NCBI GenBank assembly: GCA_947627635.1
Contig: CANQWT010000002.1
Coordinates: 1 to 58,403 of the forward strand
Direction of reading: 5' to 3'
Length of the DNA: 58,403 nt
From: an uncultured Bacilli bacterium
Lineage (GTDB): Bacteria > Bacillota_I > Bacilli_A > RF39 > UBA660
In this document: positions 20,386 to 46,190 of the stretch, in pieces
Layout: the number at the start of each line of letters is the position of its first letter
Position numbering within the stretch: the first letter of the stretch is position 1
The notes under the pieces: model-generated
What the model was told of the DNA's origin: nothing
What the model saw: the letters and a program-made list of their open reading frames with translations, nothing else
Databases searched by the model: none
Program-made: the position numbers and the translations under genes

Positions 20386-20637
20386 TTATTTCAACATAAC
20401 TCTGCTTCCATTTTTAAGACCCGAAAATTTTACAATATTATTTAAGTTAATTAGTTTGCCATCCAAATCATTGTATAAAAAAGGATTTTCGATTATTTCA
20501 TAATTCCCTTCGGTCATCTCTTTAATGGACTGTTGAACAGTAGTCAAAGCATCACTTAGTTTGACATTGATAGGAAGAAAAATATCAAATTCCTCTTCTA
20601 AAGATAATACGAAAAATGTTACCAAAATTTTATCCAT
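20386..20637 (-). CDS. YukD/EsaB-like ubiquitin-fold T7SS accessory protein
   Basis: 83 aa; size, beta-grasp-like pattern and C-terminal SGLKNGSRVMLK resemble YukD/EsaB (..GI.NGD.L.L); lies in a T7SS context. Confidence 0.6.
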   Translation of the reverse strand: MDKILVTFFVLSLEEEFDIFLPINVKLSDALTTVQQSIKEMTEGNYEIIENPFLYNDLDGKLINLNNIVKFSGLKNGSRVMLK

Positions 20638-20730
20638 ACTATAACCTCTTCTTCTATTTTAATTTATTATAACATACAAGTAAAACTTTATCTACAAACA
20701 AAAAAAAGAAAATCAAATAATTCTCTTTTT

Positions 20731-21054
20731 TTAAAATAATTCTTCTAAATCATCTGTTTCAACATCTTCATTTTCTTCAATAACATAATCTTCCTGAGTA
20801 TCTTCTTCTTCAGGAACTTCAGCGAATTCAGGATCATTCTCAAACTCACTACTATCAATTTCTGGATCTGTCAACTCAGAAGCTTCATAATCCGCAGAAG
20901 CATCATTTTCAGCCAAAAGATTAACATTATTAGCATTTAGAAATCGAATTGCTGACTTCAAATCATCAGGCATATCATCTGCTATCATAATCTTTCCATC
21001 AGAATCCAAAAATCTACTAAGACGTTGTTTCATATTATCGTCAACTGTAATCAT
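20731..21054 (-). CDS. Small highly acidic hypothetical protein
   Basis: 107 aa; C-terminal half almost entirely D/E; follows the WXG100-like gene after 15 nt. Confidence 0.5.
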   Translation of the reverse strand: MITVDDNMKQRLSRFLDSDGKIMIADDMPDDLKSAIRFLNANNVNLLAENDASADYEASELTDPEIDSSEFENDPEFAEVPEEEDTQEDYVIEENEDVETDDLEELF

Positions 21055-21069
21055 ATCATTATCCTTTTA

Positions 21070-21354
21070 CTATAGAGCTGATCCACCTTGTACGGTATTA
21101 GATAAATGTTCGCTACAATTGTCTAAGTGATCTAATAAGACTTTATTGTGATCATAGAATGCTAATGTATTTGTAATCCATGCATAAGCACGTTCTCCAG
21201 ACCAGAAAGCAACTTCTCCATCACCTTTTTGAAGAGCCTCTAAATCTGTATTTAAAGCTTTCATTGCTCTTTGCACATTTGAAACTTCAGTATCAAGGTT
21301 TTTACATAGATTCTTAGCCTTAGCCTTATTATATCCACCTTTTTTCTTTGCCAT
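21070..21354 (-). CDS. WXG100-family (ESAT-6-like) T7SS substrate candidate
   Basis: 94 aa; predicted helix-turn-helix with central W-S-G (residues 51-53, FWSGERA); strong RBS; near essC. Confidence 0.6.
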   Translation of the reverse strand: MAKKKGGYNKAKAKNLCKNLDTEVSNVQRAMKALNTDLEALQKGDGEVAFWSGERAYAWITNTLAFYDHNKVLLDHLDNCSEHLSNTVQGGSAL

Positions 21355-21372
21355 TATTATTCCTCCTTACTT

Positions 21373-21750
21373 TTATTCATTTGTCATACTATTAACAAGA
21401 TTTTCAAGCTGTGTAATACGTTGATCTAACAATTTAATTGTATAATCTTTAGTATCAGCTTCGAACTTAGATGTTAAAGTATTTAATCTATTACCTGCTG
21501 CAGTAGCTTGACTTTTACTTTTCTTAGCCCAACCTTTAAAGGCATCAGCATAGCTACCTTTTACAATTTTTTGTTGTACTGCTTTAGTCATCAATGTATT
21601 GATATTTGTCAAAGATGTTTTAATTGCAGTAAATTGTTTTGCCATATCTTGTTCGTATCTTGTAGCATTATCTGGGTCTAAATAAAGTTCTCCTTTATTT
21701 ACAGTAGGTTTGATTTTAGTCGTTGCTGTTCCTAGACTATATTTTGCCAT
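21373..21750 (-). CDS. Small helical protein, candidate T7SS substrate or partner
   Basis: 125 aa, all-helical-looking, first gene of the WXG operon, RBS GGAGGAG. Family not recognised. Confidence 0.5.
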   Translation of the reverse strand: MAKYSLGTATTKIKPTVNKGELYLDPDNATRYEQDMAKQFTAIKTSLTNINTLMTKAVQQKIVKGSYADAFKGWAKKSKSQATAAGNRLNTLTSKFEADTKDYTIKLLDQRITQLENLVNSMTNE

Positions 21751-21876: not shown

Positions 21877-21905
21877 TTGACAATTTCGACAATCTGTTTT
21901 ATATT
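21877..21905 (+). promoter_or_regulatory. Near-consensus sigma-A promoter of candidate sRNA 1
   Basis: TTGACA (21877-21882) - 17 nt - TATATT (21900-21905). Confidence 0.7.
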
Positions 21906-21909
21906 ATAA

Positions 21910-22114
21910 GTGTATTCTAGCTAAGACTATTTTAGTCCGATGCAGTTAAATATGCTATGCATATTGCAAAAGTGTTTACCACACTAGAATACACTGTAAT
22001 TAGTAGGAGAGAGAAACTCCGATAAGAACAGTTACCAATTCTACTGATAATAGTATTGATAACTTGTTAAACTAGTATTTTTATACTATGAGATTACTTC
22101 GTAATCTCTTTTTT
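21910..22114 (+). ncRNA. Candidate structured sRNA 1 (about 205 nt), unclassified family
   Basis: Consensus promoter just upstream. 11-bp closing helix GTGTATTCTAG (21910-21920) / CTAGAATACAC (21984-21994) encloses two small hairpins. Conserved TAATTAGTAGGAGAGAGAAACTCC (21997-22020), a second long imperfect hairpin, then terminator GAGATTAC-TTC-GTAATCTC + T6 (22090-22114). No ORF with an RBS. Confidence 0.55.
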
Positions 22115-22250: not shown

Positions 22251-22622
22251 AAAAAATGTAACACATTTCATTCTACTCTAAAATGTTAAAAAACACTTTA
22301 ATATATTGTAGAAGAATGTTTCTTTTTTTCACTATTAAATATCCTGATAAAATATCTAATAGCTGGTTTGCAGTAGCTAGAAAAACACTTAGCTAATTCA
22401 ATATTGTGTTCGTCTCTGGTCATTTGACGCTAGCCTGTTTACCCATATAGTTTTCCTTCTATATCCTGTAATTCTAGTATACGTTTGATAAGAATAATCG
22501 TTTTGAATCTAACCCTTAGCTAGATTCAAAACACTTCAAGTAATCATCTTTTTAATCATTAAATTTCAATAAATTAAAACTTAATATCAAATAGATTTTT
22601 ACTATCGCTATCATATACTAAC
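22201..22622 (-). ncRNA. Orphan about-420-nt transcription unit without a convincing ORF; contains a degenerate third copy of the sRNA element
   Basis: Bounded by a consensus promoter (22629-22658) and a terminator (22201-22250). Internal perfect 12-bp hairpin (22500-22511 / 22521-22532). Shares AAGTGT..TCTAGCTAAG and ACTAGAAT strings with sRNA 1. Confidence 0.35.
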
Positions 22623-22628
22623 AACTAC

Positions 22629-22658
22629 ATTATACTGGTATCTTCTTGTTTTTGTCAA
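22629..22658 (-). promoter_or_regulatory. Consensus sigma-A promoter immediately downstream of the essC stop
   Basis: Minus strand: TTGACA (22658-22653) - 18 nt - TATAAT (22634-22629). Confidence 0.65.
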
Positions 22659-22673
22659 TAGCTTTTAAAACTT

Positions 22674-25600
22674 TTATATTTTTTTTACAAATTTGACATA
22701 TTCACTTTGTCCATTCTTTACTAAAACAGCAATATCATTTGTCATTTTAACATTATCATTATAAGCATCTGGAGCATCTAGTATATTTTGTGAATCAAAT
22801 CCTCGACCTATCCATATTCCAGAAGATAAATCCACTAAATTAGAAATGTCACCATTCTTTAATTCATCACACATACTTGCTGTATCATATAAAACAAACT
22901 TAAAACTTTCATTTTTCTTAGCCAAATCAACTAATTCTCCTATATTTATAATCGAAGTTTCTTCGTTGTTTAACTCTCCTATATGTTTACTTAATTCTTC
23001 ATAACCTAATACAATAATCATAAAACGATTTGGACTTTGTCCTTGTTCATTATATTTAATAACATTTTTTTCTAAGACTGGCATAATTTTAGCAAAGCCA
23101 CCATCATAAAATTTGACTTTTTCAGGAATATCCAAATCCATATCTTTTAAAGCATTTAATACAATAATATTTACATTCTCTAAAGATGAACACATCGTAA
23201 TAAAAAAGTTAAAGAAAGGAATGACATCTTTTACTCTTGAAGAAGATATTACTGTGATACTTTTTTCTAGGTTGAAATATCCAGGTTGTGCTGTTTGAAT
23301 ATTGATACCAATTGGTATTTGTTTTAATGTTGTTATATAGTTTTTAATATCACTTAAGCTAACTTCTTGTGGTACAAATGGAACAGGAGGAGCTTTTTTT
23401 ACTAAGAATTTATCTAGTTGTTCAATTACATAACTTAATACTTTAGGTTCCTCTTCCTCACTAGTGATTAAAGGTACTTGAAATTCATAAGGTTCATCAA
23501 TTTGTATAAGACCTCTACCTGGTGTTTTATTTGGAATAGGAGGTTTATCAAAGTACATTGCATAATCTGTAATATCAACCATATTTAACATGATTTTTTG
23601 TGGGAAATTATTCTCAGCCATAAATCCAAGAGATGAAGTTGATGTTGAAGTTACAATAAAGTAAATTCCAAATTTAGAACAATTTCTTGTAAATGGAACG
23701 AATTTCTCATCGTATAAATCTTGATAAACTTCTTTAAATACTTCTATATCATATATAATAACAATGATATTAGCAAATGGACTTTTATGCTGTTTAACAT
23801 CTGTTAGAAAGTCAGAACCATTTTCAGCATAGTACTTTTGCCTTTTACTTTTTTCCGCTTCTAACATATAAAATAAGTAAGTAATCTTATTTCCATCTGC
23901 AATGGTTAAAACATCACCAACCTGTGGAGCTTTTTGAAATTTTCTAAGTTTTTCTGTTCCAAAATCTACAATATAAAACTGAACTTCTTCGGCATTATGG
24001 TTAATAATACTTGAATAAATTAGTGTTGATAATAAAGTTGATTTACCACTACCACTAGCTCCAACTAAATATGCATTTCCTTCTGTCGTAATAGGCAAAT
24101 GAACATAATCTTGTTTTTGATTTTTAGGATCATCATATTCGCCAATTACTGGGTCAATATCATAAAGAGTTGGTAAAACATTATATTTTTTAACAATCGT
24201 ATCATAGTATACATTTTGTGGAAGACTATCCAACCAAAGTTGTTGATAAGTAAAATGCTCTTGATTTGCCACATCAATGATATATTTTAGAATGTTAATA
24301 AGCTCTTCTCCTAAATCTTCTTTTTTCTTTGTAGATTGTCCTTGTTTATTATCAATGCTTTTATAGTTTTCACCGATATTACTTATAAAAGAGATACTGT
24401 TATCAATTTTAGATGTAACTGTTTCTGTTGGTGTATAGGCAATACCAGAATAGCCTGACTGGCCTTCCGTAAAAAATTCATCATAACCTATTTGTAAAAA
24501 GAAACGCCCTGAATCTTTTAAATATGCGGCATCAGGTCTTTGTATCATTTCATTACTATCATCTGTTGTTTGAACTTTACAACAAACTTTAAATCTTGAG
24601 TTCGACCATATTTGTTCATCAACTACACCACTAGGCTTTTGAGTTGCTAAAATCAAATGAATTCCAAGGCTTCGTCCAATACGAGCAGTACTGACTAATT
24701 CATCCATAAAGTCTGGCTGTTGACTTTTTAATTCTGCGAACTCGTCGCAAATAATAAACAAATGGGAAAGAGGTTCTTCCAAAGTACCTTCTCTATGGAG
24801 TTTCTGATATTTATAAATGTCCATATTACCAGTATCTAATTTCTCTTTGGCTTCATTAAAAATTCTTTGTCGTCTTTGTAGTTCACTATTGATGGATACT
24901 AAAGTACGGTTCATTTCAGATTTATCAAGGTTCGTAATTGTACCAACTAAATGTGGAAGTTTCATTCTCGTCTTTCTATTTTCGAAAGCACCGGCTAGAC
25001 CTCCACCTTTATAGTCGATCAATACAAATTGTACTTCATCAGGACTATAATTCACCGCAAGAGATAAAATATAAGTAATGATAAACTCTGATTTACCACT
25101 TCCGGTCATACCTGCAATTAAACCATGAGGTCCATGTTTTGTTTCATGCAAGTCTAAAGAAATAATATTTCCTTTTGAATCTACTCCAATTGGTGCTGCT
25201 AAAGTTGTCGTTACATTAGAATTTTTCCAACGATTTAAAATGTTTAACTGTTCTATTTTTCCTACTCCATACATCTCAAGAAAACCTAGTCTTGTTGGTA
25301 AACTTCCTTGTTGATCTTTTGTAACTTGAATCGGAATATTGTTAATTAGTTTCACATAATAATTAAAGTCAATTGCATCACTTAAAAACTCTGGAGTAAA
25401 GTTATGAATATTTTTTTCTTCCATTTCTGCTTTAAAAATACTTGCTTGTTTCTCATTATAATCTATGAAATTATCACATCCATCTGGAATATCGGTTAGC
25501 TTTTGACCAAACATCATAATTCCAAATCCAATATCATCACTGTTGTCAAGAACATTTTCCACAATTTTTAGATTTCGATACATTTCAATATGATCAGATA

Positions 25601-27257
25601 TAATTAAATAAAAGGGAATTTTTCCTTTTTTACTATTATCATTTGATTTATTGTTGGCACTGCGTTGATTAAATATTCGCACCAAATAGGTTGAAATATT
25701 TTCAGCATCTTGTAAATTTGTGGCAAAAAATCGCATTGATTTATCATTATCCCAACAATGATTTAAATTTTTTAACTTCATTAAATTAGAACTGGTATCA
25801 CTTGTTAAGATGACTAATTTTAAGTTTGCATAATCATGAAAAGTAAGTAGTTGTAATAAAATCGCATTCATATAACTGGTGTAATTTTTAGCATTATTGA
25901 TAAATGCTAAACTTTTTTCTTTATTTAAAGAAATACTAAAAGGAACATCATTGACATATTTAAATTCATCTAACAACTGATCAATATCATCTAATAATTT
26001 ATCTTTTGACTGAACAAAATCAGGTTTATCATAATTGATTTCACAGTCCAAAAGAACTCTACCTTTTCCTAAACGAACACTTAAAAAATCATCTTGTTCA
26101 ATTCCTCTTGAAAATAATGCTGAAGTTCTATTTTGTATAATATCTGCACATTGTTCTAAAGACACATTATTAAATTCAAGTGTCATTTTTTGTTCATTAC
26201 GACTAGCTTCTAAAACTTTTCTTTTCTTCTTTAAATACTTTGTATAAACATGTATTCTTCTTCGTTCTACTACAGTTCTTCTTATTTTAGATGCAAAGCG
26301 TTCTACAAAAGGCCAAAGAATAGATACAATTAGCATAACAACACACATTACAAGTGATGTTACAATAGTCTCTTTATTGCTTTCTCCTTTTTGATAACTC
26401 TGAATAGAATAATAAGCTTGTAAAACAGAAGTTAAACTCATTAGTCCAGAAGGAACAATTTGTAATAGAAGTGATCCTTCATCAGTTCTATCTTTTTCAT
26501 TAGGACTTGTAATAGTCAAATGTAAAGTATTGATTTTCTTTCTAAATATAGGTGATTTGTTAAAATATTCATTTGTCTCATAGAAATCTTTATATACTTC
26601 ATTATGAATTTCTCGGTCTCTTTCTGAAAGATAAGCAATTTCATCTGTAAGCTTATTATTAAAGAAATATGCATTATCTAAAGGAGATTTAATAAATATA
26701 GTTTTTCCACAAACTACAATTTTTAAACCCATGATAAAAAGAGTATCTAAATTTGAAAGACGTGCAGATGTTTTATTTGCTTTATTCACATAAACAGGAA
26801 CTTGAACATTTAAATTCTTATAAGACCAATAACCATTTTGATAAGTTAATTCTACTTGTTTTTCAGCAATACTTGGAAAACTATAAACAATATCGCATCC
26901 TTCTTTACCTACTGTTAAAGTACAAGTATCTTGACTAAGAGTTTTTCCTATATAACCTTTTTCTAAAGCTGGAGAAATATAAAGAAGTAAATTCTCAGTT
27001 TTATAGACATTTAAAGAATAGAAATTATATTCTTTTAATTCAATATTTTCTGCATATTGTCCATTATAGAAGATTTGCATATCCTCATTTGACTTCATAA
27101 ACCACTTTTCGTCATTATAGGCATAAATATTAACAAGACTTCTTTTTATTCCATTAGTGTCATAGTCAAAAAGGACATAGTTACCTGATACTGTTTTAGG
27201 CAATCTAAAAGTAAATATTCGATCGCTATGTATAATATATATCAGCATACTCTTCAC
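22674..27257 (-). CDS. essC: Type VII secretion FtsK/SpoIIIE-family ATPase EssC (YukB-like)
   Basis: 1527 aa; N-terminal FHA-like region, two TM segments, ATPase modules with GMTGSGKSE and GASGSGKST Walker A motifs, and a degenerate third module. Likely true start is ATG 27248 (GGGG SD); 27257 is GTG. Confidence 0.9.
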   Translation of the reverse strand: MKSMLIYIIHSDRIFTFRLPKTVSGNYVLFDYDTNGIKRSLVNIYAYNDEKWFMKSNEDMQIFYNGQYAENIELKEYNFYSLNVYKTENLLLYISPALEKGYIGKTLSQDTCTLTVGKEGCDIVYSFPSIAEKQVELTYQNGYWSYKNLNVQVPVYVNKANKTSARLSNLDTLFIMGLKIVVCGKTIFIKSPLDNAYFFNNKLTDEIAYLSERDREIHNEVYKDFYETNEYFNKSPIFRKKINTLHLTITSPNEKDRTDEGSLLLQIVPSGLMSLTSVLQAYYSIQSYQKGESNKETIVTSLVMCVVMLIVSILWPFVERFASKIRRTVVERRRIHVYTKYLKKKRKVLEASRNEQKMTLEFNNVSLEQCADIIQNRTSALFSRGIEQDDFLSVRLGKGRVLLDCEINYDKPDFVQSKDKLLDDIDQLLDEFKYVNDVPFSISLNKEKSLAFINNAKNYTSYMNAILLQLLTFHDYANLKLVILTSDTSSNLMKLKNLNHCWDNDKSMRFFATNLQDAENISTYLVRIFNQRSANNKSNDNSKKGKIPFYLIISDHIEMYRNLKIVENVLDNSDDIGFGIMMFGQKLTDIPDGCDNFIDYNEKQASIFKAEMEEKNIHNFTPEFLSDAIDFNYYVKLINNIPIQVTKDQQGSLPTRLGFLEMYGVGKIEQLNILNRWKNSNVTTTLAAPIGVDSKGNIISLDLHETKHGPHGLIAGMTGSGKSEFIITYILSLAVNYSPDEVQFVLIDYKGGGLAGAFENRKTRMKLPHLVGTITNLDKSEMNRTLVSINSELQRRQRIFNEAKEKLDTGNMDIYKYQKLHREGTLEEPLSHLFIICDEFAELKSQQPDFMDELVSTARIGRSLGIHLILATQKPSGVVDEQIWSNSRFKVCCKVQTTDDSNEMIQRPDAAYLKDSGRFFLQIGYDEFFTEGQSGYSGIAYTPTETVTSKIDNSISFISNIGENYKSIDNKQGQSTKKKEDLGEELINILKYIIDVANQEHFTYQQLWLDSLPQNVYYDTIVKKYNVLPTLYDIDPVIGEYDDPKNQKQDYVHLPITTEGNAYLVGASGSGKSTLLSTLIYSSIINHNAEEVQFYIVDFGTEKLRKFQKAPQVGDVLTIADGNKITYLFYMLEAEKSKRQKYYAENGSDFLTDVKQHKSPFANIIVIIYDIEVFKEVYQDLYDEKFVPFTRNCSKFGIYFIVTSTSTSSLGFMAENNFPQKIMLNMVDITDYAMYFDKPPIPNKTPGRGLIQIDEPYEFQVPLITSEEEEPKVLSYVIEQLDKFLVKKAPPVPFVPQEVSLSDIKNYITTLKQIPIGINIQTAQPGYFNLEKSITVISSSRVKDVIPFFNFFITMCSSLENVNIIVLNALKDMDLDIPEKVKFYDGGFAKIMPVLEKNVIKYNEQGQSPNRFMIIVLGYEELSKHIGELNNEETSIINIGELVDLAKKNESFKFVLYDTASMCDELKNGDISNLVDLSSGIWIGRGFDSQNILDAPDAYNDNVKMTNDIAVLVKNGQSEYVKFVKKI

Positions 27258-27308: not shown

Positions 27309-27374
27309 GAAGAACTTAACAAAATACAGGAGAAATTTCAAAAAAAAGATACTGTCTACTTTAGTAAAGTTTTA

Positions 27375-27403
27375 TTGACATAGTGGAATAAATTCCCTAT
27401 ACT
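27375..27403 (+). promoter_or_regulatory. Near-consensus sigma-A promoter of candidate sRNA 2
   Basis: TTGACA (27375-27380) - 17 nt - TATACT (27398-27403). Confidence 0.7.
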
Positions 27404-27407
27404 TTAA

Positions 27408-27579
27408 GTGTATCCTAGGTAAGGCATTTTAGCTATTTATACCTTTATGGTGTGCCCTAGGATATATAATTAGTAGGAGAGGAATCTCCAAAATAGGGCG
27501 ACTAGTTAATTTTATCTCGATAGAGTTAGCTAGTTGTTGAAAAGACAAAAAAAGAGATACACAAGTCTCTTTTTATTTT
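27408..27579 (+). ncRNA. Candidate structured sRNA 2 (about 170 nt), paralog of sRNA 1
   Basis: Starts GTGTATCCTAGG. Closing helix TATCCTAGG (27411-27419) / CCTAGGATA (27456-27464) shows a compensatory T:A to C:G change relative to sRNA 1. Has the identical 15-mer TAATTAGTAGGAGAG (27467-27481) then GAATCTCC. Second imperfect hairpin, then a weak terminator AGAGA...TCTCT + T-run shared with convergent veg. Confidence 0.5.
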
Positions 27580-27928: not shown

Positions 27929-29929
27929 ATGGAAAAACAAGAAGTCATTGAGGCTATCCATACCTTGAGGAGATACAGTACAGAAACAAATAGAATTGAA
28001 GCAAAATCTGCATTATTAGGATTTCCTAAAAAATGTTACGATACGTTTTCAAGTTTTTCTAATAAATATGGTGGAATGATTATCTTTGGTATTCGTGAAG
28101 AAAACAATTTTTCCACAGAAGGTGTTTATAACATTAAAGACTTACAAAAACAAATTACTGCACTATGTACTGATGCTATGGAGCCTTCCTTGCGTTGTGA
28201 TATATTGCCATTGGAATTTGAAAACAAAAAAATTTTAGCAGTAAAAATAGATGAGTTAAATTCAGCAATGAAACCTTGTTACTATAAACCTAAAGGTCTT
28301 AAAAAAGGGTCTTATACAAGAGAAGGCGATAGAGATGAGCCAATGACGGACTACGAAATTTATGCAATTCAAAGTTATAATGACCATATTGTAGAAGATA
28401 AAAGACCAAATAGAAGTGCAACTTTAGAAGATTTAAATACGGAACAGTTAAATTCCTATATCCAAAGAATAAAAAATGAAAAGCCTAATTTTTCAAAAAA
28501 CTCTTTTGAAAAGTGCTTAAAATTATCTGGTATTACAGATACAACTGATAGTACAATTCTTCCGACACTCGCAGGTACACTCATTTTTGGTGAATATCCT
28601 CAAGCGTTTTATCCACAGTTGTTTGTGGCATGTACTGTTATTCCAGGAATTGATATCGGTGAAGTAAGTGAATTAGGAGAAAGATTTTTGGACAACAAAC
28701 GTGTAGAAGGAACCATTGAAGAAATGTTAGAAGAAACCATGAATTTTTTACGAAGAAATATGAAAACAAGAGTGATTATAAATTCAAATGGAAAAAGAAT
28801 CAATAAAACAGAATATCCACTAAAAGCTTTAAGAGAAGCTGTTGCTAATGCACTCATTCATAGAGATTATAGTAAGCAAACAGAAAATGCTTATATTTCT
28901 GTATACATGTATGCTGATAGAATTGAAATTTTAAATCCAGGTGCACTTTTTGGAACAAATAAATTGGAAAAACTTGGAACTGCAACAGTCATGGAAGCTA
29001 GAAATCCTAATATTGTTAGAATACTAGAGGAGAAAGGTGCTGTCATTGAAAATAGACATTCTGGAATTCCTACTATGAAAAGAGAAATGAGAAAATATGG
29101 TTTACCTGACCCAGAGTTCTATGAAGAACGAGGAAGTTTTAAAGTAGTTTTTAGAAATACCTCTTTGGAAGAGGAAGGTGGACAAGTGGAACAGCAAATG
29201 AAGCACAATTTCCAGCAAAGTGGACAAGTGGAACAGCAAATGGAGCAGAATTTCCAACAAACTGGACAAGTGGAACAGCAAATGGAGCAGAATTTCCAAC
29301 AAACTGGACAAGTGGAACAGCAAATGGAGCAAAATTCCCAACAAACTGGACAAGTGGAACAGCAAATGGAGCACAATTTTCAACAAACTGGACAAGTGGA
29401 ACAGCAAATTGAACAAAATTTCCAACAAAGTGGACAAGTAGAGCAACAAATGGAACAGAATTTTCAACAAAGTGAGCAAGTAGAGCAACAAAATTCAACT
29501 AAAAAACTTCAAAATACTGTGCTAAAATACTGTGCTACTCCAAAAAACATTAAAGAAATTAGTCAATATTTAAATATTACTTCTAGGCAATATTTATCCA
29601 CATATATTATAAATCCTCTTATTAAAGAGAAAAAATTAGTTTATGCTATAGAAGAAAGTATACACTCAAGAAATCAAAAATATATCTCTAACAAAGGAAT
29701 AAATTTGCAAAATCGAAAAAATATTAGTGAATATAAGAACATGATTTTAAAGTTTTGTTCATCACCGAAGAGTTTTAAAGAAATTTGCCAACATTTAAAA
29801 ATATATTCTAGAAAATATATATCTTCAAATATCATAAAACCACTTATTAAAGAAGGAAAACTAACATATACAAACCCTGAAAAAATTCAGGTAAAAAACC
29901 AAAAATATATAACAGTACAAAAAGATTAG
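27929..29929 (+). CDS. AlbA_2 (Schlafen-like) + HATPase_c_4-type putative DNA-binding/regulatory protein with internal 14-aa tandem repeats and two C-terminal wHTH-like modules
   Basis: 666 aa; N-terminus ...ETNRIEAKSA... and ...ALREAVANALIHRDY... typical of 'divergent AAA / putative DNA-binding' proteins; duplicated C-terminal LK[YF]C..PK..KEI.Q.L... modules. Confidence 0.7.
   Translation: MEKQEVIEAIHTLRRYSTETNRIEAKSALLGFPKKCYDTFSSFSNKYGGMIIFGIREENNFSTEGVYNIKDLQKQITALCTDAMEPSLRCDILPLEFENKKILAVKIDELNSAMKPCYYKPKGLKKGSYTREGDRDEPMTDYEIYAIQSYNDHIVEDKRPNRSATLEDLNTEQLNSYIQRIKNEKPNFSKNSFEKCLKLSGITDTTDSTILPTLAGTLIFGEYPQAFYPQLFVACTVIPGIDIGEVSELGERFLDNKRVEGTIEEMLEETMNFLRRNMKTRVIINSNGKRINKTEYPLKALREAVANALIHRDYSKQTENAYISVYMYADRIEILNPGALFGTNKLEKLGTATVMEARNPNIVRILEEKGAVIENRHSGIPTMKREMRKYGLPDPEFYEERGSFKVVFRNTSLEEEGGQVEQQMKHNFQQSGQVEQQMEQNFQQTGQVEQQMEQNFQQTGQVEQQMEQNSQQTGQVEQQMEHNFQQTGQVEQQIEQNFQQSGQVEQQMEQNFQQSEQVEQQNSTKKLQNTVLKYCATPKNIKEISQYLNITSRQYLSTYIINPLIKEKKLVYAIEESIHSRNQKYISNKGINLQNRKNISEYKNMILKFCSSPKSFKEICQHLKIYSRKYISSNIIKPLIKEGKLTYTNPEKIQVKNQKYITVQKD
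29180..29494 (+). repeat. In-frame 42-bp tandem repeat, about 7.5 copies (GQVEQQMEQNFQQT units)
   Basis: Units start at 29180, 29222, 29264, 29306, 29348, 29390 and 29432, with a partial eighth copy; copies differ by single substitutions. Confidence 0.9.
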
Positions 29930-30934: not shown

Positions 30935-31540
30935 TTATATTTTGTTAAATTCATCAATAGCATCCAAGATTTTGTATACACTAGTATGTGGATTTGCATT
31001 GATTAAATCATCACCATCACTAATAGCTCTCTGTTCTAAAGATTTAGCAACTACTCTAGCTTCGTCAGTATGGTTCTTTATAATCCTATATATATCCATC
31101 GTCTCATAGTATGTTCCATTTACCTTTTCTATTTCCTTTTTAACATCTTGGCTACTATTCAATTTTAATTTATTATTTCTATAGTGTAATAAATACCATA
31201 TTTCAAATGTTGGAGCGGATGTAATTATTTCAATATTGTTTTCTACACATTTTCCTGTTATCTCTTTTATCTCACATATTCTTCTATCATCTAAATCTGT
31301 ATCTAACACCAAAAATATTTTTACATTATCTTCTGATTTAATATCTTCATTTTGAATATATTTTAATAAATCATCTAACATACCTTTGGGGTCTGTACTA
31401 TTTCCTGTTGAAAATTGTATTCTTAAATCTCTAGTACGATAATTTCTAAAATAATAGTACTCTGAAGACTTTGTTCCTCCTTCGGAACATATTACAATTA
31501 ACGGTCTTTTTTCCTTTTGTTTTATTTGTCTTCTAGCCAT
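30935..31540 (-). CDS. RloB-family protein (TOPRIM-like), AbiLii-like
   Basis: 201 aa; N-terminal ...PLIVICSEGGTKSSEYYYF... resembles the RloB CEG..TE..YF signature; 19-nt overlap with the upstream ATPase gene. Confidence 0.7.
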   Translation of the reverse strand: MARRQIKQKEKRPLIVICSEGGTKSSEYYYFRNYRTRDLRIQFSTGNSTDPKGMLDDLLKYIQNEDIKSEDNVKIFLVLDTDLDDRRICEIKEITGKCVENNIEIITSAPTFEIWYLLHYRNNKLKLNSSQDVKKEIEKVNGTYYETMDIYRIIKNHTDEARVVAKSLEQRAISDGDDLINANPHTSVYKILDAIDEFNKI

Positions 31541-32790
31541 AAATCAACATCTCTTATAAATGGAATTGCTCCATATCTACCATTTATATAACCCTTCTGA
31601 ATGTTTTCATCTTTTCGTACAGGAAATGAATCAAGTGGATATAAATCAGAAATACCAGTTTTGGAATTTTTTTCAGTAAACCAAATCTGGTCTCTTCTTA
31701 ATAAATCAAGATTTAATAGATTTGTAGCATGTGTCATAAATATTAACTGACTATTAGCTTTATTGATTTCCTTATTATTAAAAAGTTTGATGATAAACTC
31801 CACTAATGCTGGATGCATACTTTTTTCTAATTCATCAATAATTATTATTTTGGTACTTTCAAATGATTTTTTTAAGAACGGCGCCAATGCAAATAAGACA
31901 CGAGTACCTGAAGATTCATCGCTAAAATTCAATTTATAATTATGCGAATTATTATTTTCATCAACTATTTCATGCTCAAGTTCAATATTCACATTAGACA
32001 TTTTAAATGTTCCGTTTGTTCTAACAAGTGGTGGAATAAGCATATTTATCATTGTACTATCCATATCTTTTTCTTCATAATCAACATGTATATCTTTAAT
32101 TAGTATATCAGCTTCTTTTAATAATTTTAATGCAAATCCTTTTAGGTTTTTGTCGTTACTACTATACTCTTTTAAGTCTTGGTCTGAAATGTTATTAAAA
32201 GCATCATATGTATCTATGGCACTACTAAACCATAAATATGCATCTTTTGTTTTTTCATAATTCCAATTTGTTGCAGTTGATAAAAACAATTTATTTTCTG
32301 TATTTTTAGATTTCAATGGCACTAATTTATTTTTATCACTATTAAACTCATATATATCTGTTTTAGTTCTTGTAAAGATATTGGTTGGTTTCTGTGTGTA
32401 ATATGCATCTAAAACCTCATCATAAATTCTATCAGCATCAGCACTAAAGAAGTATCTATATTTTACATCATTTGCAATAAAGATGAATTCAAATTCACTA
32501 GGATTATTTTTAGATGTTTCATCGAATAAAAATGGTTTTAAAAAATTCCATTTACCTCCTACTGAAATCAAATTAGAATTTCTTACCATAAGTATTGCAC
32601 AAGTAAAAGCTTTGAATAAGTTAGATTTACCAGAAGCATTAGCTCCATATATAGCAGCTGTTTTTAATAAATCTAATCCATCTTTAGAAATGACATTATC
32701 TAAATTTTCATCTCCGGTTCCTTTTTCCATTGATAATGTTACTTTCTCTTTAAATGATAAAAAATTTTTAACACTAAATTCAATAAGCAT
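31522..32790 (-). CDS. AAA/ABC-like ATPase (AAA_15/AAA_21 type), AbiLi-like partner of RloB
   Basis: Walker A GANASGKSN; Walker B IIIIDELEKSMHP; start set to ATG 32790 (GGAGGAG 6 nt upstream). Confidence 0.8.
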   Translation of the reverse strand: MLIEFSVKNFLSFKEKVTLSMEKGTGDENLDNVISKDGLDLLKTAAIYGANASGKSNLFKAFTCAILMVRNSNLISVGGKWNFLKPFLFDETSKNNPSEFEFIFIANDVKYRYFFSADADRIYDEVLDAYYTQKPTNIFTRTKTDIYEFNSDKNKLVPLKSKNTENKLFLSTATNWNYEKTKDAYLWFSSAIDTYDAFNNISDQDLKEYSSNDKNLKGFALKLLKEADILIKDIHVDYEEKDMDSTMINMLIPPLVRTNGTFKMSNVNIELEHEIVDENNNSHNYKLNFSDESSGTRVLFALAPFLKKSFESTKIIIIDELEKSMHPALVEFIIKLFNNKEINKANSQLIFMTHATNLLNLDLLRRDQIWFTEKNSKTGISDLYPLDSFPVRKDENIQKGYINGRYGAIPFIRDVDLWLEDK

Positions 32791-32890
32791 AATTATCTCC
32801 TCCAATAATATTATACTCTTTTTTAAGTAAATTTGTGATTATTTTTATGTTTTTTGCATATTTTTCACAAATTTATAAATAATATCGCAT

Positions 32891-44414: not shown

Positions 44415-45950
44415 TTACAGGTGATTTGACAACTCTTGTGGATTTATTCTTTGGAATAAGACTTGTGGGTCATTTAATTCATAATGATTTGTTTCTTGAT
44501 AAGTTGGTGTTTTATCACTTGTATTTAATTGTCTTACTATTTCTTTAGAAGTATCAGGAAGGAATGGTTCTATTAGAACAGCACAAACTCTAATGGCTTC
44601 TAGTAAATGATAAAGAACGGTTTCAAGTCTTGCTTCTTTTGTGGTATCTTTCGCTAAAACCCATGGTGTAGTCTCGTCTATATACTTATTACTTGCTCTT
44701 AATACGTCAAAGATTTCTGTAATGGCATCACTTACAGCGAGCATCTGCATTTTGGTATCGACTTTATCTTTGAGTTCTGTAATTTTTTGTAAGAAGTCTT
44801 TATCGCTTTCTTGTGGTTGTTCTTTACATGAGACTTTTTTATCGAAATATTTACTAGCCATAGAAATGGTTCTTTGAACTAAGTTACCTAATACATTTGC
44901 AAGGTCACTATTGATACGTTCTACCATTAAATCAATAGTGATATTCCCATCACTTGCGAAAGGAATTTCATGAAGGAGATAATAACGGACAGCATCTACT
45001 CCAAATAAATCGACTAATTCGTCAGCATAAAGAACATTTCCTTTGGATTTGCTCATTTTATCACTACTCATGAGTAACCAAGGGTGTCCAAAAACTTGTT
45101 TTGGAAGTGGTAAATCTAAGGCCATTAAAAGAATAGGCCAATAAAGGGTATGAAACCTTAAGATATCTTTACCAATTAAGTGTAAATCACAAGGCCAAAA
45201 CTTGTTGAAGGTCTCACTACTTCCATCAGGGTCATAACCTAAGAATGTAATATAGTTGGTTAAGGCATCTATCCAAACATAGACAACATGCTTTGTATCA
45301 AATGATACTGGAATACCCCAAGTAAAAGTGGTTCTTGAAACACATAAGTCTTGTAGTCCTGGTTTTAAAAAGTTATTAACCATTTCATTTTTTCTAGCTT
45401 CTGGTTCAATAAAATGAGGATGGCAATTGATATATTCTTCTAATTGTTTTTGATATTTAGAAAGTTTAAAGAAATAAGCTTCTTCTTTGGCTTTTTTAAC
45501 TTCTCTTCCACAGTCTGGACACTTACCATCAACTAACTGACTTTCCGTAAAAAAGGATTCACATGGAGTACAATAAAGTCCTTCATACTCACTTTTATAA
45601 ATATCTCCTTGATCATAAAGCTTTTTGAAAATCTTTTGAACAATTTCTTCATGATGCTTATCTGTTGTTCTTACAAATTTATCATAGCTTGTATTCATTA
45701 AATCCCAAATCTGTTTGATTTCACTTGAGACTTCATCCACAAAGACTTGAGGTGTTTTTCCTTCTTGTTCTGCTTTTTCTTGTATTTTGATACCATGTTC
45801 GTCTGTTCCTGTTTGAAAATAAACTTCTTCTCCTAAAAAACGATGGTATCTTGCGATAGCATCTGCCAAGACTATCTCATAAGTATTTCCAATATGAGGT
45901 TTTCCACTGGTATAAGCTATTGCAGTTGTCATATAAAATTTCTTTTTCAT
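44415..45950 (-). CDS. metG: Methionine--tRNA ligase (short form without C-terminal tRNA-binding domain)
   Basis: 511 aa; HIGN (HIGH-type) motif, KMSKS motif, zinc knuckle CPDCG. Confidence 0.95.
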   Translation of the reverse strand: MKKKFYMTTAIAYTSGKPHIGNTYEIVLADAIARYHRFLGEEVYFQTGTDEHGIKIQEKAEQEGKTPQVFVDEVSSEIKQIWDLMNTSYDKFVRTTDKHHEEIVQKIFKKLYDQGDIYKSEYEGLYCTPCESFFTESQLVDGKCPDCGREVKKAKEEAYFFKLSKYQKQLEEYINCHPHFIEPEARKNEMVNNFLKPGLQDLCVSRTTFTWGIPVSFDTKHVVYVWIDALTNYITFLGYDPDGSSETFNKFWPCDLHLIGKDILRFHTLYWPILLMALDLPLPKQVFGHPWLLMSSDKMSKSKGNVLYADELVDLFGVDAVRYYLLHEIPFASDGNITIDLMVERINSDLANVLGNLVQRTISMASKYFDKKVSCKEQPQESDKDFLQKITELKDKVDTKMQMLAVSDAITEIFDVLRASNKYIDETTPWVLAKDTTKEARLETVLYHLLEAIRVCAVLIEPFLPDTSKEIVRQLNTSDKTPTYQETNHYELNDPQVLFQRINPQELSNHL

Positions 45951-45974: not shown

Positions 45975-46190
45975 TTTATCATAACATAAGGGTCCTATAG
46001 GACTGTACCACCTTATTTTATAATAAACTTATTATACACTTATTTTCGTTAACGCCTGTCTACGATTATGCCTACCTATCGACACAATAGTTCAGAAGCC
46101 ATATTCATTTACAGAATTTACTTGCTTTCACCAGTTACAAGTTCTCTTCTTGAAATTCTTTGTAAATAAACTCTTCCTCATCACTTCTTG
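45975..46190 (-). promoter_or_regulatory. T-box leader (Met specifier) upstream of metG
   Basis: Minus strand: GTGATGAGGAAGAG (GA/K-turn-like), AGAGAAC...CTGGTGAAAGC (AG bay / distal loop-like), AAATGAA (AUG specifier followed by a purine), and T-box core AAGGTGGTACAGTCC (46014-46000). Confidence 0.6.

Follow-up and report, generated by a model that had tools for sequence, protein, structure and literature searches.

A stretch of 58,403 nucleotides (nt; positions 1-58,403) of contig CANQWT010000002.1 from an uncultured Bacilli bacterium of the RF39 lineage (assembly GCA_947627635.1), referred to below as the window, harbors two copies of a putative small RNA gene at a candidate type VII secretion system (T7SS) locus. 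The protein-coding genes of the window run on the minus strand nearly throughout. Both RNA copies, termed copy 1 and copy 2, are oriented opposite to this near-uniform direction, and no plus-strand gene is present in the window downstream of either of them. Copy 2 lies beside essC, which encodes a 1527-amino acid (aa) protein (22674-27257, minus strand) with FtsK/SpoIIIE domains and a weak FHA match, as in EssC-type ATPases. Copy 1 is adjacent to an operon for four small proteins of 125, 94, 107 and 83 aa (20386-21750, minus strand) that is also next to the EssC gene. The terminator of copy 1 faces that of a second non-coding element, called X (minus strand), beyond which the 3' end of essC is found. 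None of the four small proteins matched a Pfam family, WXG100 included, even at E-values up to 10. We infer a WXG100 operon from the size of the proteins, a W-S-G motif in the 94-aa protein and the adjacency to EssC; the name had been used in an earlier reading of the same sequence (the original prediction), and it is not confirmed by Pfam but agrees with the motif and with the EssC-type ATPase at the locus.

Copy 1 carries the signals expected for an independent transcription unit (Table 1). A consensus scan scored its promoter at 11/12. Its terminator was among just two terminator-like sites that the scan listed in the 1-kb region, compared to 0.2 expected from shuffled sequences. The predicted RNA opens with helix P1, the arms of which, GTGTATTCTAG and CTAGAATACAC, are fully complementary over 11 bp, and UGUAAU follows directly. 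In the purine-rich block TAATTAGTAGGAGAGAGAAACTCC (21997-22020), GGAG (22006-22009) can pair with CTCC (22017-22020) to form the hairpin P2, and the long hairpin P3 contains CUACUGAUAAUAG at 22041-22053. The plus strand folded with -49.3 kcal/mol, at z = -3.6 relative to shuffled sequences, and the minimum free energy (MFE) structure includes the 11-bp helix around two hairpins. Open reading frames (ORFs) of at least 20 aa inside copy 1 were of just two lengths, 20 and 22 aa. They had no Shine-Dalgarno sequence and no counterpart in copy 2 or in the homolog from the closest relative, L009 (see below), for which reasons a gene for a small protein or leader peptide was rejected. The original prediction had described the promoter, the 11-bp helix, the GGAG/CUCC pairing, a second long hairpin and a terminator with an 8-bp stem and T6; all were found where it had placed them, as were the minus-strand promoter back-to-back with that of copy 1 and the absence of an ORF with a ribosome binding site. 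These sequence signals support its call of a structured, non-coding RNA gene that is transcribed independently on the plus strand, between a promoter and a terminator of its own, and they point to copy 1 as a stand-alone gene for a small RNA of about 205 nt.

Table 1. Features of copy 1, element X and copy 2 in the window. Positions on the minus strand are mostly given in the direction of transcription; B-type denotes the RNA sub-type defined in the text.
Feature	Position	Strand	Basis
Copy 1 promoter, TTGACA (21877-21882), 17-nt spacer, TATATT (21900-21905)	21877-21905	+	direct read
Copy 1 RNA, B-type member, ~205 nt, predicted start to end of terminator T-run	21910-22114	+	
Copy 1 5' domain, P1 around two hairpins (~21925-21937, ~21941-21968)	21910-21920 / 21984-21994	+	MFE
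Copy 1 P2, hairpin GGAG-AGAGAAA-CUCC, the family hairpin GAG-AAAGAAAA-CUC minus one base	22006-22020	+	
Copy 1 P3, long imperfect hairpin with apical loop CUGAUAA (22044-22050), the family's invariant UACUGAUAAUA block	22028-22067	+	
Copy 1 AAACUAG, the family's AAACUCG box ahead of the last hairpin	22069-22075	+	
Copy 1 intrinsic terminator, unidirectional, GAGATTAC-TTC-GTAATCTC (22090-22108; 8-bp stem, 3-nt loop) and T6 (22109-22114)	22090-22114	+	
Divergent promoter of small-protein operon, TTGCCA, 17-nt spacer, TG-extended TATGAT	21805-21777	-	consensus scan
X promoter, TTGACA, 18-nt spacer, TATAAT (12/12), just after essC stop codon	22658-22629	-	
X conserved core	22323-22528	-	
X 16-bp hairpin, then CUUAUC	22533-22499	-	
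X hairpin AUAUAG-AAGGAAAA-CUAUAU	22464-22445	-	
X AAACCAG box	22369-22363	-	
X hairpin with UUAUCAG (22350-22344) in loop UUUAUCAGG	22362-22332	-	
X transcript end, terminator-like hairpin and U-run facing copy 1 terminator, ~100 nt past UUAUCAG hairpin, also seen in MFE	22250-22205	-	
Copy 2, divergent paralog beside essC	27375-27579	+	
Copy 2 promoter, TTGACA, 17-nt spacer, TATACT, 11/12	27375-27403	+	consensus scan
Copy 2 closing helix GTGTATCCTAGG/CCTAGGATATA(C)	27408-27419 / ~27456-27467	+	
Copy 2 P2, GGAGA-GGAA-UCUCC	27476-27489	+	
Copy 2 third hairpin, 19-bp stem with four G-U pairs, without CUGAUAA loop	~27498-27539	+	
Copy 2 weak bidirectional terminator	27553-27570		

At the gathering thresholds of Rfam no family matched copy 1 or copy 2. 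A relaxed scan based on E-values matched positions 21967-22057 of copy 1 to the PGK motif (RF03040) with 33.3 bits, compared to a gathering threshold of 50.8, and the homolog of copy 1 in L009 (8115-8345, BLAST E=4e-11) gave 30.5 bits over the same segment. Agreement was found at the most conserved positions of the model, GAGAAAGaAAACUC and UACUGAUAAUA. The inner hairpin of the model, uuGAG-AAAGaAAA-CUCaa, is present in copy 1 with one base less, and its 3' hairpin with the loop AAUACUGAUAAUAUU is present as well, with an exact UACUGAUAAUA block. The outer helix CUUAUC/GAUAAG is only weakly represented: GAUAAG occurs at 22021-22026, its 5' partner GUGUUUA pairs with UAAGAAC with one mismatch, and cmscan marks non-canonical pairs. 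Thus copy 1 shares with the PGK motif the two hairpins and GAUAAG in the same order and spacing, as well as an origin in gut and rumen metagenomes of low-GC bacteria. It differs in its large promoter-proximal closing helix and inner domain, which the Rfam model does not cover, and in having its own terminator right after AAACUAG. Furthermore, neither copy occupies the leader position upstream of a same-strand gene, be it pgk or another. Since its score is below the threshold, no gene follows and a terminator with a UUAUCAG loop in cis is lacking, copy 1 is not a member of RF03040 by the Rfam criterion. The Rfam scan that the original prediction had proposed as a check thus returned nothing at gathering thresholds, but the sub-threshold match in the 3' half and the size of the family described below refute the full orphan status that it had assigned to the RNA.

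To our knowledge, the PGK motif is known only from gut metagenomes and its function is not known. It has been included in Rfam since 2017 as a 92-nt orphan and is a presumed cis-regulator of pgk (Rfam and Wikipedia entries). The motif comes from a survey of 224 candidate structured RNAs (Weinberg et al., 2017), the main text of which (PMC5737381) does not mention it. Our literature searches retrieved no paper that discusses the motif.

The core shared by copy 1 and the PGK motif was converted to a search pattern, GAGARAG-N(0,1)-AAACTC-N(10,40)-TACTGATAATA, for which the number of chance matches had been estimated beforehand as a handful. In the metagenome collection it matched at least 120 times, in assemblies from human gut, rumen and other animal guts. 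Viral contigs gave no matches, and the element is therefore not phage-borne. Clustering of the matches and an Rfam scan of a sample separated two sub-types; all counts given below for these rest on distinct sequences among the matches listed. The A-type (about 60 distinct RNAs) scored 70-92 bits on RF03040 and represents the true PGK-motif RNAs, with a same-strand gene 40-300 nt downstream. This gene was pgk in 21 cases, murG in 10, a gene for a 117-149-aa protein in 9 and a Fic gene in 7, and LtaS, PflB, HU and one WXG-like protein were encountered as well. A-type leaders also occurred in tandem, with copies about 1.1-1.2 kb apart at four loci (L051, L065, L084, L118) and 0.3-0.5 kb apart at two others (L041, L098); at the former four, separate copies precede the gene for the 117-149-aa protein and then a Fic-domain gene of the same cluster. 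The B-type (about 50 distinct RNAs) has the same core but gives no Rfam report at E<0.01. With the window left out, 39 metagenomic B-type members were made into an nhmmer profile, which matched 21984-22073 of the plus strand with E=4e-8 as its only significant match in the 58 kb, and gave E=3e-11 for L009 and E=5e-22 for L007. Copy 1 belongs to a large family of structured RNAs of uncultured low-GC gut and rumen Bacilli, and the PGK motif of Rfam models only the core of this larger and more varied family. The B-type is a previously undescribed sub-type, and copy 1 is clearly homologous to the PGK motif in the core.

The B-type RNAs share a common anatomy. Near-consensus sigma-70 promoters (11-12.5 out of 12.5) precede nearly all relatives, with the 5' arm of P1 starting 4-8 nt after the -10 box, a distance that is also found in copy 1. 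After a variable inner domain the order is the 3' arm of P1, a UGUAA(U/C) linker, P2, GAUAAG, P3 with the loop UACUGAUAAUA, AAACUCG and an intrinsic terminator. The sequence of P1 differs between groups (CATAG/CTATG, TTTTGA/TCAAAA, TCTCGG/CCGAGA, TCCTAG/CTAGGA and AGCTAG/CTAGCT, next to the arms of the window given above), and P1 appeared in the unconstrained MFE structure of 22 of 31 B-type members. A test for the longest complementary run did not discriminate in such AT-rich sequence (self mean 10.2, cross mean 9.1) and was replaced by these per-sequence folds and by column-wise pair counts. For the latter we used an alignment (A4) that joins the first 24 nt past the -10 box to a segment around the core (-46 to +30), a trimming that is blind to complementarity because fixed offsets were used. 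In A4, 84% of the cells were paired, compared to 36-46% when the partners were slid by 1-3 columns, and the covariation score was reached by none of 500 shuffles. P1 was paired in 85.6% of the cells and 5 of its 8 pairs change on both sides; P3 was 90.9% paired with 7 of 9 pairs covarying; and P2 was 96% paired. The P1 counts are conservative since the rows of the window and L009 are off by 1-2 columns in this helix. RNAalifold recovered P2 and P3 independently and missed P1 on the trimmed alignment due to register shifts. The outer helix of RF03040 would cross P1 of the B-type as a pseudoknot, and was paired in only 63% of the cells across B-type RNAs. Compensatory changes in the helices, with loops that are invariant over deep divergence, demonstrate that RNA structure is under selection and not just a promoter and terminator.

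The conserved polarity also bears on the strand. If the minus strand were the functional one, copy 1 or copy 2 would lie within a long 5' leader, either of the small-protein operon or of essC, and the plus-strand signals would be fortuitous. Both copies indeed lie upstream of minus-strand genes and the minus-strand fold of copy 1 is the more stable one (-57.5 vs -49.3 kcal/mol). Against this, about 50 relatives conserve the promoter and the unidirectional terminator on the plus-equivalent strand, and many G-U pairs of P1 and P3 fall on the promoter strand and become A-C mismatches on the other. Copy 2 favors the plus strand, with -59.7 vs -33.1 kcal/mol, and most relatives are co-directional with the neighboring genes with their internal polarity unchanged. 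We consider a functional minus strand very improbable.

The B-type RNAs were found to be associated with secretion genes. Counting homologs of the window EssC or of its 125-aa, 94-aa or 107-aa protein as T7SS-gene homologs, 30 of the 50 distinct B-type RNAs have such a homolog within 2.5 kb and 28 have X within 1 kb; for the 60 distinct A-type RNAs both numbers are zero. The WXG-like gene that follows an A-type copy in L041 was missed by this homolog test. The tie to a secretion locus that had been guessed from the window alone is supported by these counts; the recurrent partner X had been overlooked. Regarding their arrangement, B precedes X on the same strand in 22 cases and follows it on the same strand in 3, and a further 3 have the two on different strands, where they converge in the window and in its duplicate L026 and diverge in L009. 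That they co-occur whatever the arrangement fits two RNAs that are transcribed separately but depend on each other, rather than a single transcript. Most related loci have the RNA on the same strand as the secretion genes, and the divergent layout of the window is thus not a conserved one.

Element X extends over 22323-22658 of the minus strand and matched no Rfam model. It is 81% identical to its counterpart in L009, compared to 76% for flanking coding sequence, and its fold gave z = -5.2. An iterated nhmmer profile of X, built from T7SS loci, identified 31 places, including 22493-22323 of the window (minus strand, E=4.9e-5) and the minus strand of L009 (E=3.8e-5), and conservation of X extends to L009, L006, L007 and the majority of B-type loci. 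Four metagenomic loci (L032, L034, L039, L059) show on one strand the order rplL, terminator, promoter, B-type RNA, terminator, promoter, X, terminator, promoter and the gene for the 125-aa protein, and in L085 the same B-plus-X arrangement precedes essC. Matches between X and A-type leaders were weak and individually non-significant, and were confined to the 3' module of AAACYNG and the UUAUCAG hairpin. A covariance model gave 15 bits (E=2.2) on X. For these two reasons X is called a partner and not a proven family member.

Relatives of the locus were collected in two ways. Homologs of EssC were scanned for in GTDB genomes, which gave three useful relatives (L009, L010, L025), and orthologous loci were collected via the adjacent 125-aa protein, with L001-L005, L006 and L007 among them. 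The closest genomes are from uncultured gut Bacilli, with EssC identities of 75% for L009, a metagenome-assembled genome from rabbit gut, 64% for L010 and 49% for a Coprobacillaceae isolate. Two further loci (L026, L027) are 100% identical to the window, being from the same species in another sample, and therefore add no information. The 125-aa protein has only 12 database relatives of 54-64% identity, and homologs are encoded behind pairs of B-type RNA and X in about 20 metagenomic lineages. An Rfam scan of the loci fetched through the 125-aa protein gave no matches; X is present in L006 and L007, the latter of which has a B-type RNA as well. In L009 (7379-8345 and 8991-10214) the B-type RNA diverges from X and is co-directional with essC, opposite to the window. 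The L009 contig lacks the small-protein operon and has an IS30-like transposase gene adjoining the RNAs, which suggests that its layout is a rearrangement.

The apical loop CUGAUAA of both sub-types and the UUAUCAG loop of X are exact complements. Within 600 nt downstream on the same strand, TTATCAG was found for 86 of the 106 unique members, 47 of which have it within 150 nt, whereas the reverse-complement control gave 23 and 0, respectively. In the A-type it follows AAACYNG at about 19 nt and lies in the terminator loop directly ahead of the gene, so that both loops are on one transcript. At T7SS-linked B-type loci TTATCAG sits in X, 220-400 nt downstream, and thus CUGAUAA is carried by the B-type RNA and UUAUCAG by X. 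The duplex predicted for the loops of copy 1 and of X in the window is 7 bp long with -7.7 kcal/mol. Furthermore CUGAUAA begins with CUGA, a sequence of the YUNR type; YUNR loops form the U-turn that antisense RNAs use for fast loop-loop recognition. No Rfam model matched the B-type architecture or X, and our literature searches turned up neither of these, nor the T7SS link or the complementary loops.

These observations suggest a mechanism in which X would be transcribed from its promoter after essC toward the small-protein operon, to end at the terminator that faces that of copy 1. The CUGAUAA loop of copy 1 would kiss the UUAUCAG loop of X through a 7-bp loop-loop contact and could thereby modulate folding, termination or stability of the X leader. 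Via this leader, the expression of the downstream secretion-substrate genes would be altered. Copy 1 would act locally, as the trans counterpart of the intramolecular contact in PGK-type leaders. Because both loops lie in cis in the PGK leaders, the pair of B-type RNA and X looks like a split, two-transcript version of the same device. The sequence comparisons show that copy 1 is a selected, structured RNA of the PGK-motif family, of a sub-type tied to T7SS loci and to X. That it is a locally encoded small RNA kissing the X leader of the T7SS operon is a reading to which we give about an even chance. A more far-reaching version, which we regard as tentative, is that of a split riboregulator: an ancestral PGK leader that docked CUGAUAA on the UUAUCAG loop of its own terminator would have been divided into a small RNA and a separate leader, giving rise to a two-RNA switch devoted to T7SS operons of uncultured gut Bacilli, and the family as a whole might also read tRNA-Ile or the factor recognising it, with the small RNA as competitor.

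Several observations weigh against a kissing contact between copy 1 and X. Transcription of copy 1 and of X is predicted from promoter and terminator signals. P3 of copy 1 contains a C-A and a U-U mismatch, and on the minus strand this hairpin would be more stable (-12.4 vs -5.8 kcal/mol). In the window X, the UUAUCAG hairpin is not itself the terminator, and no alternative pairing was found in X that would link a kiss to a change in termination. Inter-loop covariation is not available as support because both 7-mers are invariant and the search pattern required TACTGATAATA; such invariance would also fit a protein or other partner that is shared. About 40% of the B-type RNAs (groups B2 and B4) lack an X element within 1 kb. 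Relatives that share the secretion genes can be devoid of both RNAs: no related RNA lies upstream in L001-L005, and in L010, where the small-protein genes start 70 nt after essC, neither copy is present and the block of copy 1 and X is absent. Finally, copy 2 lacks the recognition loop CUGAUAA altogether.

The proposed contact resembles that of antisense RNAs such as CopA/CopT, RNAI/RNAII and Sok/hok, which like copy 1 are small and highly structured, have their own strong promoter and terminator, and have a YUNR apical loop, here of 7 nt starting with CUGA, that is exactly complementary to the hairpin loop of a nearby leader. Unlike these RNAs, B and X are not encoded by opposite strands of the same DNA; their predicted pairing is limited to the 7-nt loops and no extended duplex can follow the kiss. 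Through its complementary loops, in cis in the leaders and on two RNAs at the secretion loci, the orphan class of the PGK motif gains a concrete and testable mechanism, and one sub-type of the family would be a free-standing small RNA that tracks T7SS loci. As far as function can be read from sequence, this points to RNA-based control of T7SS in poorly known gut Bacilli. We know of no RNA regulator of this kind for T7SSb.

The same two loops allow a different interpretation, in which the UUAUCAG loops capture tRNA-Ile or a protein that recognises the loop and the B-type RNA is a decoy or mimic. The anticodon loop of tRNA-Ile(GAU) has the same sequence as CUGAUAA (CACCC-CTGATAA-GGGTG in the E. 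coli gene), and the Ile codon AUC is part of UUAUCAG. Neither 7-mer varies at all within the family, as if constrained by a third, universal partner. A comparison with T-box leaders (RF00230) is then obvious, since these are also Firmicutes leaders that end in a terminator, and the codon-like triplet AUC in the UUAUCAG loop could pair with an anticodon loop. However, the two copies have no T-box sequence, no Stem I architecture and no T-box match in Rfam, and the regulated genes are not related to amino acids: pgk, murG, fic and T7SS genes have no obvious link to isoleucine. The tRNA reading is based on sequence coincidence only, and the related contigs contain no tRNA-Ile gene for comparison. 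We regard it as improbable.

A somewhat less unlikely alternative to the kissing small RNA is an orphan or relic aptamer of the riboswitch type. Ligand- or factor-sensing cis leaders, the role that has been proposed for the PGK motif, would have been duplicated or inverted away from their genes, and the copies in the window would be remnants or gene-less ligand binders. The A-type RNAs are classic leaders, with promoter, structured RNA, terminator and a gene 40-250 nt downstream (pgk, murG, fic and others), and the complex fold with a possible pseudoknot and many invariant nucleotides is typical of aptamers; the degenerate appearance of copy 2 would fit a relic. This does not explain why neither copy has a plus-strand gene downstream or why the B-type exists as a class with a strong terminator right after the core and further promoters before the next gene. 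The conservation of promoter, P1 and terminator in about 50 diverged B-type RNAs, many of which have no same-strand gene nearby, argues for a selected stand-alone RNA instead of decay. For copy 1 itself, control of a downstream gene in the manner of a riboswitch or cis attenuator is not supported, as it has no same-strand gene and its terminator faces that of X, followed by the 3' end of essC. Retron RNAs, IS110 bridge RNAs, omega- or tracr-like guides, type I and III toxin-antitoxin RNAs, 6S RNA and T-box RNA were also dropped, as no neighboring gene or Rfam signal supported them.

Copy 2 had been noted as a paralog next to essC, and was indeed found there with the same type of promoter, a closing helix placed relative to it as in copy 1, a long hairpin and a 15-mer, TAATTAGTAGGAGAG, in common with copy 1. 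BLAST matches between the two copies had E-values of 6e-4 and 0.007. The closing helix shows one compensatory change relative to copy 1 (ATTCTAG/CTAGAAT to ATCCTAG/CTAGGAT), and the fold of copy 2 gave z = -6.8. Its terminator fails the consensus scan, being too AT-rich. Copy 2 did not match RF03040 at relaxed thresholds and was not found by the B-type nhmmer profile. A covariance model of A4 returned it as the second-best hit of the window, with 25.4 bits and E~0.03 at a rough calibration and with copy 1 in the training set; in this alignment P1 and P2 fit, P3 is absent, and a UUAUCUCG-like segment and the weak terminator are present. Compared to L009, where veg is directly followed by the essC promoter, adjacent and co-directional, copy 2 is a 258-nt insertion (approximate length; 27314-27571 relative to 2637-2640 in L009), which holds the whole unit. 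We infer that copy 2 is a decayed or diverged paralog, a lineage-specific insertion that has lost the recognition loop. Its absence in L009, the missing loop and the absence of both copies in L010 are at variance with the pair of conserved small RNAs at the two promoters of the locus that the original prediction had envisaged. The clearest effect of copy 2 would be that veg and the essC promoter are now separated by a bidirectional terminator.

This effect is also the basis of a further rival reading, in which the copies are insulators or mobile intergenic cassettes. Their promoter and terminators would block read-through, from veg into essC and from X into the small-protein operon, or cause convergent interference, and the RNA would have no specific target. 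The clean insertion of copy 2, the absence of the block of copy 1 and X from L010, the orientation to neighbor genes that varies among genomes, and the position of both copies against the near-uniform gene direction are consistent with this. On the other hand, neither target-site duplications nor terminal inverted repeats were seen at the junctions of copy 2 when compared with L009, and the copy number is low, with two diverged copies and no other matches in the 58 kb. The compensatory helix changes and the loops that are invariant over deep divergence are not expected for a cassette without an RNA target. We consider this reading unlikely, slightly more so than the relic aptamer. A mobile repeat resembling a miniature inverted-repeat transposable element was rejected for the same lack of duplications and terminal repeats, for the two diverged copies in 58 kb, and since the 11-bp inverted repeat lies inside the element, where it covaries as a helix of the RNA.

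Some other features of the window are recorded here. Its sole T-box leader (RF00230, 95.2 bits) is found at 45985-46190 on the minus strand, upstream of a 511-aa ORF (44415-45950), and a bacterial small signal recognition particle RNA (RF00169, 61.5 bits) at 58186-58282 of the same strand. One of the few plus-strand genes (27929-29929) has a product of 666 aa with AlbA_2/Schlafen and HATPase_c_4 domains, together with nearly identical GQVEQQMEQNFQQ(S/T) repeats in a row (~29100-29500) and, after these, two Fic-like_C/HTH-like C-terminal segments. The minus strand also has two overlapping ORFs of 427 and 201 aa (30935-32805), located between rsmA and the following operon, which may constitute an accessory or defence-type pair.

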